Shown here: positions 2,955 through 31,133 of the stretch, piece by piece
Position numbering within the stretch: position 1 is the stretch's first letter
How the letters are laid out: the number at the start of each line of letters is the position of its first letter
DNA from: Haloquadratum walsbyi C23
GTDB taxonomy: Archaea; Halobacteriota; Halobacteria; Halobacteriales; Haloferacaceae
NCBI RefSeq assembly: GCF_000237865.1
Contig: NC_017459.1
Coordinates: 2,940,001-2,972,000 of the forward strand
Length of the DNA stretch: 32,000 nucleotides
Reading direction: 5' to 3'
The notes under the pieces: generated by a model
Database searches by the model: none
What the model saw: only the letters and a program-made list of their open reading frames with translations
Told to the model about the DNA's origin: nothing
Position numbers and translations under genes: made by a program

Positions 2955-3222
2955 AGCCCTGTCTCTTACCCACAACTCGAGTCAGGATTTCAGCGGAACG
3001 GGATCGGGATCGGCGAGCACGACTGAAATCCTCGGTATCTACAGTTTCAACACCTCTTTGGAACAATTGTAGTGGGCTTGATTACCGGCGTTCGGTCACC
3101 CCTACAGCCGATATCACTGTCTGAATCGCTTCTCGCCTCGATTTTTTGCGTTCAAAATACCTCTGAGAGTGTCTGAAACGTCCGGTTACGACCCCACGAA
3201 CTTGTGGGTAAGAGACAGGGCT
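2955..3222. mobile_element. 268-bp MITE-like element with perfect 21-bp terminal inverted repeats and an interior derived from a truncated tnpB element
   Basis: 2955-2975 agccctgtctcttacccacaa is the exact reverse complement of 3202-3222. On the minus strand, 3218->3172 matches 12488-12534 at 43/47 positions. The interior at about 3127-3160 resembles tnpB1 coding sequence at about 12554-12590. An internal hairpin aggatttcag/ctgaaatcct lies at about 2984-3032. Confidence 0.7.
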
Positions 3223-8452: not shown

Positions 8453-8490
8453 AAACTCAATTCAATTCGAATTATATCCGATAAGCAGGC

Positions 8491-8526
8491 GAAAAACCTC
8501 GCCCTTCAGGGCGGGGAAGATGTCAA
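8491..8526 (+). repeat. Solitary RE-type hairpin unit (R-unit) in the sufU 3' region
   Basis: gaaaaaCCTCGCCCttcaGGGCGGGGaagatgtcaa: an 8-bp stem, ttca loop and GATGTCAA tail. The architecture matches the terminal hairpin of the tnpB element at 14535-14569. It starts 39 nt after the sufU stop, on the same strand. Confidence 0.6.
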
Positions 8527-8618
8527 ATCATCATATTCCGTACTTACATTCATCTCAATAACTATGAACAGTATCGGGCATTTTCAGTGATCATTTCAAT
8601 AAGAGACTTACAACGGTA

Positions 8619-8638
8619 GCGAGGCGAAAGCCCGCGAT
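8619..8638 (+). repeat. 5' half of an R-unit split by a MITE insertion
   Basis: gcgaggcgaaagCCCGCGAt aligns with tcgaggagaaagCTCACGAc (15821-15840). The complementary 3' half is at 9161-9184. Confidence 0.5.
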
Positions 8639-8644
8639 TATACC

Positions 8645-9159
8645 CTGTCTTTTACGCACAAGTTGTCCCGACGAGATGGACGGGGTGAAGCGGTGAAAAT
8701 TGCTCCCATTGTCGGGAGTTGGGAATCTCATCTTAAGTAACCGGGTATGCTGACGACGAGTTGACCCGGCTTGAGTAGTCCCTGTGACCCAATCGGTAAT
8801 CCCGGTTGGCGCCTTATGATGATACACTCATCTGTAGCAGTCGGTACCTGCGGAATATCTGGATTAGAACTGTCCGAGTGACAAACTGACACCTGCGATC
8901 AGAGGGGTCAAAACACCGGGTATTCGCTTCTACAGATGAGCGTGGTGATTAATTCAAATAGTTTCACCGGCGGTGTCGAATGACGCGAATTCAGCGGCTC
9001 CCATCACCGATACGGATAATCACGGCGGTTAAGACTAAGACTTAGACTTGGACTAATCGCTATCAGTCCGTCAGGATTTGTCTCAGACCCTGCTTGAAAG
9101 CGGCTAAAACGTCACGTTGGGATGCTGTGGACTTATGAGTAAAAGTCAGGATTTCAGTC
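8645..9159 (+). mobile_element. 515-bp MITE-like element with imperfect 19-nt terminal inverted repeats and an omega-RNA-like interior
   Basis: Left end ctgtcttttacgcacaagt (8645-8663). Right end 9141-9159 acttatgagtaaaagtcag, whose reverse complement ctgacttttactcataagt matches at 15/19. The interior has blocks shared with 23617-23863(-) and with the tnpB2 3' region (9005-9028 vs 14439-14463). An internal 12-bp inverted repeat actcatctgtag/ctacagatgag lies at about 8825 and 8931. Confidence 0.6.
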
Positions 9160-9160
9160 G

Positions 9161-9184
9161 TGGGAGGAGGTCAATTGAAGTCAT
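9161..9184 (+). repeat. 3' half of the split R-unit
   Basis: atttcaGTCGTGGGaggaggtcaa aligns with ttcaATCGTGGGagaagtca (15841-15860). GTCGTGGG pairs with CCCGCGA(t) at 8631-8638. Confidence 0.5.
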
Positions 9185-12407: not shown

Positions 12408-12536
12408 ATATGCAATACGTGTTGAACGTAATAAACGGTGTCGCAGATGGATTACAGAAGTTCAAGGAGAAAGCCCTCCCTTGAGGTCTGTCTTTTACAC
12501 ATAAGTTCGTGGAGTCGTAACCGGACGTTTCAGAGT

Positions 12537-13433
12537 ATGACGTTTTCGCAGTCTGGCTTCGAACTCAAAAACACGAGTGACCGACACGCGACAATCTGGC
12601 TCTCCAAAATCGGAGACATCCCGATCCGCTACCACCGCGAAATCCCTGACGAAGCGGACATCAAAGAAGTTACCGTCAAGAAGGAAACAACCGGTAAGTG
12701 GTTCGTCTGCTTCGGGCTCGAAACCGACGACGCTGACCTTCCTGAGAAACCCGACGTGGAGTCTCTCAACACAACCAACAGCGTTGGGATTGATCTCGGT
12801 AGTCTCAATTACATCTACACAACCGATGGGAAGACCGTGGATTGGCTTGATCTCGAAGACGACTACGAGCGATCGCGCCGCGAACAACGCAAACTCTCAC
12901 GGAAGCAGAAAGGGTCGAACAACTACGAGAAACAACGGCGAGAAGTAGCGAAGCTGAAGCGGCACATCCGTCGGACAGTGTTGGACTACCAGCACAAAAT
13001 AACGACGTGGCTCGTCCGTGAGTACGACGCGGTGTTCGTCGAGGACTTGGACGTAAAGGGAATGTTGGAGCAGTCGCACAATGCTCGCAACAAGCAAGAT
13101 GCAGCGTGGCGACAGTTCATTACACTGCTCGAGTATAAGGCCGGTCTGTACGGCTGTCACGTCGTGCAGATCAAACCAGAGGGAACGACGAAAGAATGTG
13201 CGTCGTGTGGTGTAGAAACAGCAAAACCGATTTGGGTACGTGAACACTCCTGCCCGTCATGTGGGTTTGAGTGTGATCGTGACGCGAATGCGGCGATGAA
13301 TGTCCTGCAACGCGGTTTTTTTGAAGTAGGGCTGGAATGGCCCGAAGACACGCCTGTGGAGACTGCGCTCCCTACGGACACCCATTCGGTGTCTGCAAAG
13401 CGCGTCATCGAAACAGGAAGCCTCGGGGCTTGA
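12537..13433 (+). pseudogene. tnpB: tnpB (OrfB/IS1341-type RNA-guided nuclease family), copy 1, N-terminally truncated
   Basis: RuvC motifs SVGIDLG, VFVEDLDVKGM and CDRDANAAMN. Zinc ribbon CASCG..CPSCG. The RuvC Asp lies only about 85 aa after the first Met, compared with about 190 in full-length TnpB, so the REC/WED N-terminal part is missing. The frame stays open upstream through the terminus to 12438. Confidence 0.8.
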
Positions 13434-13440
13434 CCCCAAG

Positions 13441-14325
13441 ACGGTTCACTCGGCTATTCAGGACCAAGCCATTCGAGAAGCGAAATCTGACCACAGCAAA
13501 GATGGGGAAGTTGAATACCGAGAGAGTCAACCGTTCGCAGTCAACAACCAGAATGGGGAGATCGACACAACCGATAACGGCACAGTCGTCATCGGATTCC
13601 CGTGTGTTTCTCAGTGGTGGTACACGCCTATTGAAGTGTACGACGATATTGCCGATTCTGTAGACCGACTGGTCGAAGGTGACGCCGACAAATCCCGTCT
13701 ACAGGTCTACGGTCGTGGCGACGACTGGTACTGTACATTCAACGCCGAGTACGATACCGACACGTCGAATGGGACATCCATCGGTGTCGATATTGGCGAA
13801 CGACATATTCTCGCTGCAACGGCTTATGATGAAGATGAGTCAATGCTGGTGTCAGGTGATGAGGCAAAGTACGTTCGGCGCAAATATCGTTCCCTACGCG
13901 ATTCGCTCCAACAAGCGGGTGCGCTTCGCGCACGCAACCGTGTGGGTGACAAAGAACAGCGTCGAATCAAGGACTTAAATCATAAACTCTCACGTCGCCT
14001 CATCACGTTCGCGGAACAGTTCAAGAATCCAGTCATCAAACTGGAAGACCTCGAAGGTATCCGCAAGAATAGCTCGTGGTCAGCCATTCACTCGTGGCAC
14101 TTCTATCAACTCCAACAGTTCATCACGTACAAAGCAGAACGTGCTGGTATCAGCGTCGAGAAGGTTGACCCGTACCGTACCAGCAAACTATGTTCAGAAT
14201 GTGGTTCAATTGGAACTCGTGATGAAGATCACTTTTTATGTTCGGAGTGTGACCGTGGACGACATGCCGACCTAAATGCTTCAGAGAATATTGCACAACG
14301 TGAGGGAGAACCATGCACGGCGTAG
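13441..14325 (+). pseudogene. tnpB: tnpB, copy 2 (different subfamily), N-terminally truncated, no start codon at the junction
   Basis: The frame is open from about 13420: ..[35 protein letters not shown]. RuvC motifs [18 protein letters not shown] and [10 protein letters not shown]. Zinc ribbon CSECG..CSECD. The ORF track starts only at GTG 13636. Confidence 0.75.
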
Positions 14326-14569
<244 letters not shown>

Positions 14570-15788: not shown

Positions 15789-15820
15789 TCGATCTACTAT
15801 TGTTCACGAATTACACGGAA

Positions 15821-15860
15821 TCGAGGAGAAAGCTCACGACTTCAATCGTGGGAGAAGTCA
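15821..15860 (+). repeat. Solitary R-unit in the NMD3 3' region
   Basis: tcgaggagaaagCTCACGACttcaATCGTGGGagaagtca, 33 nt after the NMD3 stop on the same strand. It shares the tcgagga prefix, hairpin and gtca tail with 14531-14568. Confidence 0.55.
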
Positions 15861-16447
15861 CATACTCATACCAACATTACTGCTGAGAATTACACTGGCT
15901 CTGATTAAGTGCTTGGTCAATGACCCCTCCCCACCCACTCGCTTATGAATTACTTCTTAATGAAGGGGACTCCACCTCAAAGACATTGAGTCCATTAAAT
16001 TCAGATCCGCAATTATCAGCACTTAAGAACATTTTATTATAGTCGATGGTAACACCACTTCCTCAAAGAGTGAGTGAAACGAACGAGTAGCAAGGGATAC
16101 GCCCGACAATCATAACAGTAATATTGATTTTGTGGTCTGACATGCTTTGATTGTCTAATGTGGAAATCATTCAAACCGATAGAGCAGACGGCAATAATAT
16201 CCGTTTCCGTTTTTGTCGTTTCGCCACAGTTCGAACATGTAAGCTCAACCTCTCAATCAAGATGTTTAATAAAGAAAGTCTAGTGAGGGCTGTGGATCCC
16301 CACAGCGAATAATTCTCTCCAACTTGGAACACGATCGGAATTTGAATCAACCTTCGGTGGAAACTCCGCCGTCATAGAACCGGTCTCCGACAACTGAGTA
16401 GCTCGGGGAAGTTCACTTTTTAGCGTAGTTTCAAGATAGAAGGTGAA

Positions 16448-23579: not shown

Positions 23580-23863
23580 TTGACATTCTCCTCCGTCTGA
23601 AGGCAGGAGGGATCACGGCACCGCACCGCTTCGCTGAGTTGGGGGTGTCAGGTTTGGGTTTGAGTTTGGGTTTGCAGACTCCCAATACTAATACCAAGTC
23701 AGTCCACCGTTGGAATCGGTGTGTGACCGGTCACTGCGCAATCTCCAGGGAGTGCTACATCTCAGCCCCCAATGCTCCTCTCCTCACCTGAGGCGAAGTC
23801 CCTGTGTTGGTTGTGCCACAGGAGTTTCGATCATTGTCACTGTCACCGGACTCGGAGTTACTT
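23580..23863 (-). mobile_element. 3' part of a tnpB-less IS1341-derived element (omega-RNA-like body with intact terminal R hairpin), separated from its 5' part by an IS1595 insertion
   Basis: The minus strand ends gatCCCTCCTGCCttcaGACGGAGGAGaatgtcaa (23614->23580). The body shares blocks with 8868-9030 and 14439-14463 (cacaccg..caac.cggtgg) and with 3260-3479. Confidence 0.55.
23651..23674 (+). repeat. Hexamer microsatellite (GGTTTG-like x4)
   Basis: ggtttg ggtttg agtttg ggtttg, read directly. It lies inside the element above. Confidence 0.8.
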
Positions 23864-24871
23864 GTACGCTCTTGTGAAGTACATTGTTGGTGAGTCAGAG
23901 AACTTCTCGGATAATCTGTTTCAGTGCTTCTTGTCCCGGTTTGCGGAGGATTCGTCGCCGAAGTTGGAACGGCCTGAGATATGCTGTCAGTTTGTCCTTT
24001 GAGACGCCTCGATGCGGCGAGAGCCACCGTCGCGCCAGCGACGCGTGGCTCTCGCACGTGTTCACATGTGCGTCTCCATCAACGTACTCGCCGTCACCGT
24101 GAATTACTGATTCTCGGTGGAAGCTCTCATCATTGTCGAGTGGATCGTAGGCACGAAATCCGTCAGTATAGATGCTCAGCGACTCCTTCTCGTGGTTGTC
24201 GAGAAGGAGTCGCACGGTCGTTTCATCGGCGGATTTCGCTGGGACGACGTATCGCTGACCGCTGCCCCGATCAACGAGCGTGAACACTGGCGGTTTATCA
24301 CCCTCATACGTTCCTCGTCCGCGTTTCGAGAGGGCACGCGAGCGCGACTCTCGATCGCGCTCGCGACCTTTCTTCCCAGCAGAGACATAGAACTCGTCGA
24401 TCTCGACCGGTCCAACGAGATCGATTGTTGGCGCGTCGAGCGTTCTGGCGAACTGCTCGACGCGCCGGTGAAGCGAGCGATACGAAACGTCAATTTCAGC
24501 GTCTAACTGGCGGATACTCGTGTTGAACCGGAGGAACGAGTAGAACGCGAACAACAGCTTATCGAGGCCGATCTTCGCGTGCGCAAAAATCGTGCCGGTT
24601 TTGTCGTTGAACGTGCGGTCGCAATCCTTACACAGGTACCGTTGATACTCTCGATAGCTGCCGTGTTTGATTACCGACTCAGACTGGCAGCGCGGGCAAC
24701 AGAGGCCCTCTCGCCAGCGAACCTGCTCCAGCAGGTTCGCGGCGCTCGCCTCTGAGCTCAGCAATTCAAATGGGAACATTGCGTTCAGGTGACGCGTCGC
24801 GTCACTCTTGCCCGCTACGCTTTCACGGCGATAGCTTTACCCGACCAACAATCTGCTTCAGAAGAGCGTAC
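23864..24871 (-). mobile_element. IS1595-family insertion sequence (about 1.0 kb)
   Basis: Imperfect terminal inverted repeats: 23864-23891 gtacgctcttgtgaagtacattgttggt vs the reverse complement of 24844-24871, gtacgctcttctgaagcagattgttggt (25/28). It has a single transposase ORF. The exact tips and target duplication were not resolved. Confidence 0.75.
23895..24779 (-). CDS. IS1595-family transposase (N-terminal zinc ribbon + DDE domain)
   Basis: 294 aa: CPRCQS..KHGSYREYQRYLCKDCDRTFNDKTGT zinc-ribbon motif, then a DDE region (..VEIDEFYV.., ..IYTDGFRAY.., ..NTCESHASLARRW). Confidence 0.88.
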   Translation of the reverse strand: MFPFELLSSEASAANLLEQVRWREGLCCPRCQSESVIKHGSYREYQRYLCKDCDRTFNDKTGTIFAHAKIGLDKLLFAFYSFLRFNTSIRQLDAEIDVSYRSLHRRVEQFARTLDAPTIDLVGPVEIDEFYVSAGKKGRERDRESRSRALSKRGRGTYEGDKPPVFTLVDRGSGQRYVVPAKSADETTVRLLLDNHEKESLSIYTDGFRAYDPLDNDESFHRESVIHGDGEYVDGDAHVNTCESHASLARRWLSPHRGVSKDKLTAYLRPFQLRRRILRKPGQEALKQIIREVL

Positions 24872-25089
24872 TTGTATTGGTGACGAGAGCCCAATGGCTG
24901 TTTGATTCCCACATGGGGCACCCTGTTTCCAGCGTGGGCGGACACTCTCACTCGAATCGCCACTTTTCGGGCACTCGGCTGCATCGGGGTCAGAGCCAAT
25001 GCGCCGTTGTACAGCAAAACCGGTTGAAAACTACAGTATGACGGCGCGTATCCACGCCGTGAGCAGGCGTGGTATTGCGCCTGTACCAT
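24872..25089 (-). mobile_element. 5' part of the element interrupted by the IS1595 copy
   Basis: A GC-rich non-coding block starts right after the dedA stop. It has a hairpin ccacgcc tgctcac ggcgtgg near 25040-25060. The block adjoining the IS (24878-24915) loosely parallels 3480-3512. Confidence 0.35.
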
Positions 25090-25608
25090 CTATAATAACC
25101 GACCTGAGAGTAAAAACAACCCAGCAAGAGCACATTCAAAAACAACGGTTCCGATTGCGGATAATGTAATAAATTGGCGATCATTCATCTCAGCAAATCC
25201 TGCAGGAACGGTGAGCATCCCACGTGTGAATAATAATGCGTTGCTAAGAGGAATAATAAAGGGACCCCAGCGTTCAAACCACCCATCGAATCGTTCAAGT
25301 TTGGATGGCTTGATCCGAAACCACGATTTCTGGAGAAGATACTCACGACCTCCATGCTGTGCGAGTTTAAATAATACATATTGACCAATTGTTGCACCAG
25401 CCACTGCAACCCCAATAATGGGGATAACAGCATCATCACCAAGCAATAATAACGATCCAGGGACAATAAACTCACTTGGCATGAAGTACATCAACATCGC
25501 CCCCTCAAGTATGAATATACCAAAGAGGGCAATATAAGCCCACTCTGACTCAAGAAGTGCCACCAATTGTGGGGGCATTGACTCAAGTTGCAGCGGGAAT
25601 ACTAACAT
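25090..25608 (-). CDS. DedA/SNARE-associated family membrane protein
   Basis: 172 aa from the ATG at 25608: ..YIALFGIFILEGAMLMYFMPSEFIVP..GATIGQYVLFKLAQHGGREYL..FERWGPFIIPLSNALLFTRGMLTVPAG. Confidence 0.85.
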   Translation of the reverse strand: MLVFPLQLESMPPQLVALLESEWAYIALFGIFILEGAMLMYFMPSEFIVPGSLLLLGDDAVIPIIGVAVAGATIGQYVLFKLAQHGGREYLLQKSWFRIKPSKLERFDGWFERWGPFIIPLSNALLFTRGMLTVPAGFAEMNDRQFITLSAIGTVVFECALAGLFLLSGRLL

Positions 25609-30743: not shown

Positions 30744-30867
30744 CTTTCTGAATCATAAGACCACACATGACACATGGTTACCATTACTCAACTGTGATGT
30801 GGTTATACCAGTATGATATATTCTGGAGATCGATCTTAAACCGTTATTTCGGACCGCTTATATTCAA

Positions 30868-30907
30868 TGAGGAGAGAATCCCGCCATTCACCGTGGGCAA
30901 GGATGTC
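30868..30907 (+). repeat. Solitary R-unit in the hemL 3' region
   Basis: gaggagagaatCCCGCCAttcaCCGTGGGCaaggatgtca, 125 nt after the hemL stop on the same strand. The stem is partly decayed. Confidence 0.45.
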
Positions 30908-31133
30908 ACGCAGGAGCACAGTTGAGTTGTACATAGCCTGTTTCAGTAGTTGCATCACGCAGTCGGTTTTTTTACTGTATTCATTTTCCGTATATTATAT
31001 ACAGTGAACAGTTTGTGTCAATCTCACCGTGGTCACAAGAGGCTTCTAACAGAATCAGCTCATTCATCACAGACATAGCGGTGTAGCGAAGTGGTGTCCT
31101 TTTCACCCGTGACCGACGATTGTTGCATAGAAA

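Follow-up and report, generated by a model that had tools for sequence, protein, structure and literature searches.

The 32,000 nucleotides of the Haloquadratum walsbyi C23 chromosome analysed here (the window; positions are counted from its first letter) contain three solitary hairpin units, all of them on the plus strand and each downstream of a gene read in the same direction. One follows sufU (8472–8526, 55 nt), another follows NMD3 (15811–15861, 51 nt) and a third, degenerate one follows hemL (30858–30909, 52 nt). The units begin 19–114 nt after the stop codons (19 nt past that of sufU and 22 nt past that of NMD3), and the distances from stop codon to hairpin are 39, 33 and 125 nt; both the same-strand placement and these distances had been given correctly in a preliminary description of this DNA, in which the hairpins were listed. 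Two of the three units are enclosed by convergent gene pairs (sufU with radA, and NMD3 with a gene of 58 amino acids). The hemL unit sits between hemL and hemC, which are tandem genes on one strand, and hemC is found downstream of it in strains L142, L143 and L149.

Anatomy and family membership of the solitary units

A structured pattern, made up of a 7–8 bp stem (one mismatch allowed), a loop that includes TTCA or TTTA, a linker of purines and then GTCA, matched the window four times, whereas 200 dinucleotide shuffles gave an expectation of 0.035. A scan for a generic perfect stem plus GTCA yielded 2 matches against 2.07 expected, its sequence requirement being too loose and its stem requirement too strict. 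Covariance models built from eight published ends were dropped on account of stems misplaced by MAFFT and of the small size of the sets, and they were replaced by an alignment of 50 mini-elements taken exclusively from haloarchaeal genera other than Haloquadratum. The model built from this alignment (R1) was used to search the window with the filters off, and recovered six of the seven hairpin copies of the preliminary description (E values from 4e-18 to 2e-3), and direct reading of the window showed every listed sequence at its given coordinates. The seventh, a supposed decayed copy at 2916–2942, was not recovered, its nearest R1 match (2889–2904) having an E value of 9.9, and this claim was not supported. 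An extra hairpin at 2880–2914, GGACGCCA cttcag TAGCGTTC acGGTCA, was matched by the pattern scan with an R1 E value of 9.9, and is probably a chance match or a very decayed one.

In the alignment of 50 sequences the stem is maintained by covariation, with 93.5% of the cells paired, compensatory changes in six of the eight pairs, and none of 500 shuffles reaching an equal value. The folding energies of the hairpins are not exceptional with respect to shuffled sequence (z from -1.9 to +0.7) and do not separate the units.

Each solitary unit carries a left-end-type flank (GAGGAGAAAGC), a single hairpin and a right-end-type tail (GATGTCAA), preceded by a target oligonucleotide that reads TTAC at 15811 and TTAT(A) at 8472 and 30858. 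Direct reading revealed no visible inverted terminal repeat and no duplication of the flanks, and two of the three units end in GTCAC, not GTCAA. The unit after NMD3 (R1 56.7 bits, E = 4e-18, model positions 1–52) is laid out as TTAC, ACGGAATCGAGGAGAAAGC, stem CTCACGA, loop CTTCAA, stem TCGTGGG and AGAAGTCAC; when read along the scheme of a left end joined to a right end, it becomes TTAC ACGGAA TCGAGGAGAAAGC TCACGAC TTCA ATCGTGGG AGAAGTCAC. In the unit after sufU (33 bits, E = 8e-10, positions 1–52), a TTATA-type target precedes the HqIRS56-like left flank GCAGGCGAAAAACC, the 8-bp stem CCTCGCCC/GGGCGGGG encloses the loop TTCA, and GAAGATGTCAA forms the right-end tail. The degenerate unit after hemL was also matched over positions 1–52 (16.8 bits, E = 3e-4); its target is TTATA, and the flank GAGGAGAGAATCC is followed by a weak stem and by the tail GGATGTCAC. 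The hairpin family given in the preliminary description is real, but the 5' border of the units needs correction: it lies 15–20 nt further 5', at the TTAC or TTATA, and the flank that is gained in this way is left-end-like and not right-end-like.

Comparison with published element ends (Table S9, PMC3119063) accounts for this composite anatomy. The left ends of HqIRS54, ISHwa24 and ISNph18 read TTAC, 6–7 nt, GCGAGGAGAAAGC, a hairpin with a TTCA loop and GGATGAATC, and the right ends read GTGGGAATC (...GTGCCGTGGGAATC), a near-identical hairpin and AGGATGTCAA. The fusion of left and right ends predicted for ISHwa24 is 52 nt long. The unit at 15811 is of the ISHwa23/24-HqIRS54 type by sequence comparison, its 5' part resembling the published left ends and its tail the right ends. 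R1 covers positions 1–52 in the solitary copies, whereas in the genuine right ends of the window (14522 and 23610) it matches positions 23–52 only or has a poor 5' part, because the left-end part is absent there. As the solitary units combine a left-end 5' part with a right-end tail, they are fusions of both ends and not solo right ends, as had been proposed. The assignment of the units to the ends of IS200/IS605 (tnpB) elements was, in turn, confirmed by R1 and by the comparison with Table S9. We conclude that the solitary units are very probably terminal-only PATEs, that is, non-coding derivatives of 51–55 bp of IS200/IS605 elements (IS1341-type, tnpB-only); their anatomy and family membership are demonstrated by the data above.

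Element ends, MITEs and strain alleles in the window

The right end of a degraded IS1341-type element was located on the plus strand at 14522–14569 (R1 29.8 bits, E = 1e-8, with a poor 5' part). Its 5' flank CGAGGAATCC is of the right-end type, lacks TTAC, and resembles the ISHwa24 right end. A tnpB fragment of the same element lies at about 13452–14325 (Pfam OrfB_IS605 and Cas12f1-like_TNB), and the 244 nt that separate the tnpB stop (14325) from the right end (14569) correspond to the scaffold region of roughly 200 nt. A left end on the same strand at 12452–12487, TTAC AGAAGTTCAAGGAGAAAGC..., probably belongs to this element (R1 match 12452–12518, 19.3 bits, E = 4e-5, matching part 1–23). 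It is broken off by a MITE-end remnant at 12488–12521; in HBSQ001 a full MITE splits the left-end hairpin, and row 682 of Table S5 in PMC3119063 gives 34 bp in the window versus 957 bp in HBSQ001. A second tnpB fragment, at 12541–13451 on the plus strand, was identified by Pfam, by sequence and by comparison with Table S9. It has its own right end GAAGCCTCGGGGCTTGACCCCAAGACGGTTCAC at about 13418–13451, with a hairpin at 13420–13442, and belongs to a different family (HqIRS46/ISNph12, GGTTCAC type). The whole of 12452–14569 thus appears to be nested, with an outer element that has a TTAC left end and a GATGTCAA right end holding the MITE remnant and the second tnpB fragment.

On the minus strand, an HqIRS56-like PATE extends over 23580–25095, with the left end TTATA GATGGTACAGGCGCAATACC... 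at 25095 and the right end ...GGAGGAGAATGTCAA at 23580 (comparison with Table S9). What had been listed as a minus-strand copy at 23614–23580 is the right end of this PATE (R1 match 23610–23580, 16.3 bits, E = 5e-4, positions 23–52 only). The PATE is interrupted at 23867–24868 by ISHwa6 (1002 bp, IS1595/ISH4-type, 8-bp target duplication), whose transposase is of the IS1595 type by Pfam and which is absent from HBSQ001 (Table S5, row 684). A terminal-only PATE of another family, TCTAC ... GGTTCAC, occupies 53 bp on the minus strand at 365–417. It corresponds to HqIRS47 (core deletion; Table S5, row 678), and its coordinates in C23 (2940365–2940417) are set in that table against 4 bp left in HBSQ001 (PMC3119063).

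One further copy of the mini-element is split, on the plus strand. Its left half (8608–8643), made up of TTAC AACGGTAGCGAGGCGAAAGC plus the 5' arm CCCGCGA, very closely resembles the left end published for ISNph18 (R1 match 8608–8661, 16.7 bits, E = 4e-4, model positions 1–23). The right half (9151–9175) consists of the loop TTTCAG, the 3' arm TCGTGGG and the tail AGGAGGTCAA (R1 match 9133–9174, 14.6 bits, E = 2e-3, matching at the 3' end). Once rejoined, the arms CCCGCGA and TCGTGGG are complementary. An inverted-repeat and motif search revealed that the segment in between (8644–9150), lying in the hairpin of the mini-element, is an element with the Tn5-like inverted terminal repeats CTGTCTTTTACGCACAAGT, around which no 10-bp target duplication was recognisable, so its exact boundaries are uncertain. 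It carries a nested 118-bp HqIRS39 MITE at 8825–8942, a segment that is missing from HBSQ001 and that appears in row 680 of Table S5 (C23 2948825–2948942) as an HqIRS39 insertion 'in_repeat' (PMC3119063). The splitting is explained by the preference of MITEs for inserting into such end hairpins: 30 of 31 MITEs were found inside PATEs or IS605-type elements, with small repeats entering the near-terminal palindromes (PMC3119063).

At 2955–3222 lies a MITE of 268 bp whose inverted terminal repeat, AGCCCTGTCTCTTACCCACAA, is 21 nt long and perfect. It probably represents 'Duanwu' (HqIRS35), which the Tn5-type ISHwa2 mobilises and for which 34–36 copies of 241–266 bp have been reported (Table S8, PMC3119063). 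As a side observation, the inverted repeats CTGTCTCTTACCCACAAGT of the MITE-like elements at 2955–3222, 8644–9150 and in another locus (L001:6905–7176) closely resemble the outside ends of Tn5/IS50, and these three elements occupy or adjoin IS605-type end hairpins.

The NMD3 protein encoded in the window is 99% identical to that of H. walsbyi, and the window is about 98% identical over 21 kb to the HBSQ001 chromosome (AM180088.1). The indels between the window and HBSQ001 at 365–417, 8825–8942, 12488–12521, 23867–24868 and 30811/12 agree to the base with the C23 positions of Table S5 (PMC3119063) once 2,940,000 is subtracted from the latter, which places the window almost certainly at 2,940,001–2,972,000 of C23. 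The three solitary units do not appear in this table of strain differences because they are located in segments common to both strains. The NMD3 unit is identical in nine strain or metagenome loci, the sufU unit is present at two loci (HBSQ001 and one metagenome contig), and the hemL unit is present in all of the five hemL loci, out of eight, that reach it. Among the strain and metagenome loci examined, neither a full-length parent nor an empty allele was found at the exact sites of the three units. Such site polymorphism is seen for sister copies (Table S5) and for an ISHwa21-like neighbour. The site of the latter (30811–30819) is a hot spot of insertion in the hemL–hemC interval, located 40-odd nt 5' of the hemL unit, and is empty in the window. 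At this hot spot a metagenome strain (L148, 4417–5943) has the ISHwa21-like tnpB element at full length, oriented on the minus strand, with TTATA as its target and ...GGAGGATGTCAA as its end, and HBSQ001 (L145:4417–5722) carries only the two ends of the element, flanking an IS630-type insertion. The three states show the decay of such elements within the species, although not that of the three units themselves.

The mini-element across haloarchaea

A collection of genomes was searched with the pattern GAGGMGAAAGC N7-9 TTYA N7-11 GRWGTCA, which gave at least 120 matches; about 111 of those listed were in Halobacteria, where they were spread over many genera. Among the 120 matches listed, 99 had a TTAC 6–10 nt upstream of GAGG, mostly at 8–9 nt, and the total length was 52 nt in 61 and 53 nt in 24, with 52 nt as the modal value. 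The commonest sequence among the matches listed is in essence the fusion predicted for ISHwa24.

Gene context was assessed for 95 elements with crude gene calls (GC3-validated ORFs covering 68% of the sequence). Nearly all of them (92/95) were located outside genes. Out of 84 cases, 30 had the upstream gene in the same orientation as the element (null 0.49, p = 0.02), and in tandem gene contexts 9 elements were sense and 34 antisense (p = 2e-4). On the strand of the gene, the antisense elements read as stop codon, hairpin and a pyrimidine-rich GCTTTCTCC. Therefore, co-orientation with the upstream gene, which had been noted for the three units of the window, does not hold as a property of the family. 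Moreover, as two of these units lie between convergent genes, either orientation would have placed them downstream of a co-oriented gene.

Overlap between the end of the element, ...GTCAA, and the TGA stop of an oppositely oriented host gene occurs in 31 of 95 elements when validated genes are considered, and in 52 of 111 when any ORF of at least 100 amino acids is accepted. At these sites, which are among the loci L010–L129, the element is followed by GTAA, the reverse complement of TTAC, as exemplified by L028:1371–1422 on the minus strand. These arrangements are consistent with insertion of the element, or of its parent, into an xxG|TAA stop, with the element end TTGA restoring a stop codon in frame. 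In Halorubrum coriense, the gene of a 3-hydroxyacyl-CoA dehydrogenase ends in ...YEYD TGA, followed by the element and GTAA, and orthologues of identical length (285 aa) have ...YEYE or ...YEYD before the stop codon. Stop codons were enriched among occupied relative to vacant TTAC sites (31 to 61 versus 39 to 673), with an odds ratio of 8.8 whose true value is probably lower, as crude gene calling makes the 'intergenic' class too large. An HqIRS82 insertion had been recorded as 'in gene, sequence not affected', with no stop-codon rule stated (PMC3119063). A text search of the literature combining the terms of such a rule returned no paper, which shows neither novelty nor prior description.

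A 52-nt element that is common in Halobacteria and often placed on stop codons without gene damage bears on the decay of tnpB elements and on the sites at which their remains are tolerated. A wider proposal would be that the single-hairpin element of 52 nt constitutes a pan-haloarchaeal, trans-mobilised minimal IS200/IS605 substrate with a preference for antisense G|TAA stops, acting as a portable cassette of stop codon plus 3' end. We advance it tentatively and consider it rather doubtful as a whole: the wide distribution and the overlap with stop codons are observed in the census, and the mobility and the effect on transcripts are predictions.

Origin of the units and related systems

This class of unit has been known in H. 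walsbyi since 2011, and its observation in the window is real but ordinary. The 'terminal-only' PATEs described for this species comprise HqIRS81–83 and a 52-bp core-deleted ISHwa23 (Dyall-Smith et al. 2011, PMC3119063). In that work, both HqIRS46 and the tnpB element ISHwa23 were found to be reduced to 52 bp by deletion at direct repeats of 22 bp or 19 bp formed by the end hairpins, and one site harboured a 1500-bp ISHwa23 in one strain versus a 52-bp element in the other (PMC3119063). HqIRS81–83 are PATEs of 51–60 bp present in 23–25 copies per genome (Table S8, PMC3119063), and possible mobility of the mini-element itself is suggested by six 52-bp copies that are strain-specific (PMC3119063).

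The deletion mechanism shown there for the sister copies can be extended, as an inference, to the three copies of the window. The left- and right-end hairpins of these element families are near-identical and constitute direct repeats of 16–22 bp, and recombination or replication slippage between them would delete the core, that is, tnpB, the omega-RNA region and one copy of the hairpin. Each unit consists of the target oligonucleotide (TTAC or TTATA), a left-end flank of about 20 nt, one subterminal hairpin and a right-end tail of about 10 nt ending in GTCA(A). The fused ends would stay in place after the deletion of the core, and a TnpA (Y1) transposase acting in trans may later mobilise some copies. 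Any role for the host is at most putative; the units probably persist owing to their position at tolerated intergenic sites, and they serve as preferred landing sites for MITEs. Either in-situ deletion or the insertion of a ready-made mini-element may have given rise to each of the three units.

Among the three roles offered for the hairpins in the preliminary description, that of footprints of lost elements was the nearest to the truth, but not in the form of solo right ends. Truncation or imprecise excision of full elements could leave such ends, and indeed the 3' halves of the units match right ends and the window holds truncated tnpB fragments. However, model positions 1–22 (TTAC plus GAGGAGAAAGC) are matched in the solitary copies and not in the right ends at 14522 and 23610. 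Right ends carry GTGGGAATC where the left-end flank would be. The full-length model matches refute this origin for the units at 15811 and 8472; it could hold for the one at 30858 if its 5' flank were unrelated to left ends, and for the units in general we regard it as scarcely credible. Since the units are fusions of the left and right ends, the objection that precisely excising elements should leave no solo right ends does not apply, and complete fusions explain how apparently 'solo' hairpins arise from such elements. A second role offered was that of orphan guide-RNA modules: transcribed together with the upstream gene, the hairpin would form the 3' stem of an omega-RNA, and a TnpB provided in trans would be guided by the next 16–20 nt. 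The units share their hairpin and tail with a tnpB right end, the three units of the window are sense-oriented behind expressed genes, and longer PATEs are thought to encode trans-acting omega-RNAs (Meers et al., PMC10055086). Nevertheless, only about 30 nt of right-end origin are left in a unit, the 5' half of which is left-end sequence, and an omega-RNA scaffold would take up some 100–250 nt, derived from the tnpB 3' end and placed directly upstream of the element boundary. In the case of sufU and NMD3, coding sequence stops 19–22 nt upstream of the unit, so there is no room for a scaffold of about 200 nt, and no Rfam family was matched. The exact 18-mers located 3' of the three units had 0, 8 and 0 matches in viral contigs, and all 8 were in phages of 32–39% GC (AT-rich) and lacked TTAC, so no meaningful viral match was obtained. 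As the family is, in addition, mostly antisense to its neighbouring genes across genera, a guide-RNA role is highly improbable.

The remaining role, that of co-opted 3'-end elements whose hairpins would terminate the upstream gene's transcript or make it more stable, as bacterial REP sequences do, appears very unlikely. It would fit with the position of the units 19–114 nt past stop codons, with their fixation in all the strains examined and with the compensatory changes that keep the stem across the family. [quoted passage not shown] Besides, the sense strand carries no T-tract after the hairpin and no terminator-like call at the units, the hairpin energies are unexceptional, and the orientation bias of the census (30/84 co-oriented with the upstream gene; 9 sense versus 34 antisense in tandem contexts) runs against it. 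With the guide-RNA and terminator readings failing the tests run, and with the repeat class catalogued for this genome in 2011, the finding as first stated is of little consequence, and the units are best described as terminal-only PATEs.

In the IS608 model, the Y1 transposase TnpA binds subterminal hairpins and inserts 3' of TTAC, and the right end reads ...TCAA. The IS200/IS605 ends of this model and the units are alike in the TTAC target, the imperfect subterminal hairpin with a conserved loop, the TCAA right end and the absence of target duplication. A normal IS200/IS605 element has two hairpins with cargo between them, whereas in the units both cleavage sites flank a single hairpin. With the H. 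walsbyi terminal-only PATEs (HqIRS81/82/83, and the core-deleted HqIRS46, HqIRS47 and ISHwa23), found in the same organism and 51–60 bp long, there is no substantive difference. These PATEs and the window units alike lack inverted terminal repeats and target duplication, have a target oligonucleotide, a near-terminal palindrome and a conserved terminal oligonucleotide, share homology of their ends with IS605-type transposons, and are targets of MITEs. The omega-RNA-carrying PATEs of bacteria (Meers et al. 2023, PMC10055086) are also non-autonomous members of the IS605 family that need proteins in trans, but they keep a full omega-RNA, whereas the 52-bp units keep only its last hairpin. Finally, REP/BIME sequences resemble the units in being single short hairpins, related to IS200/IS605 ends and intergenic, often at the 3' ends of genes. 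REPs, however, have a dedicated RAYT (TnpA-REP) gene and their own conserved tetranucleotide, whereas the units are fusions of the left and right ends of tnpB elements.
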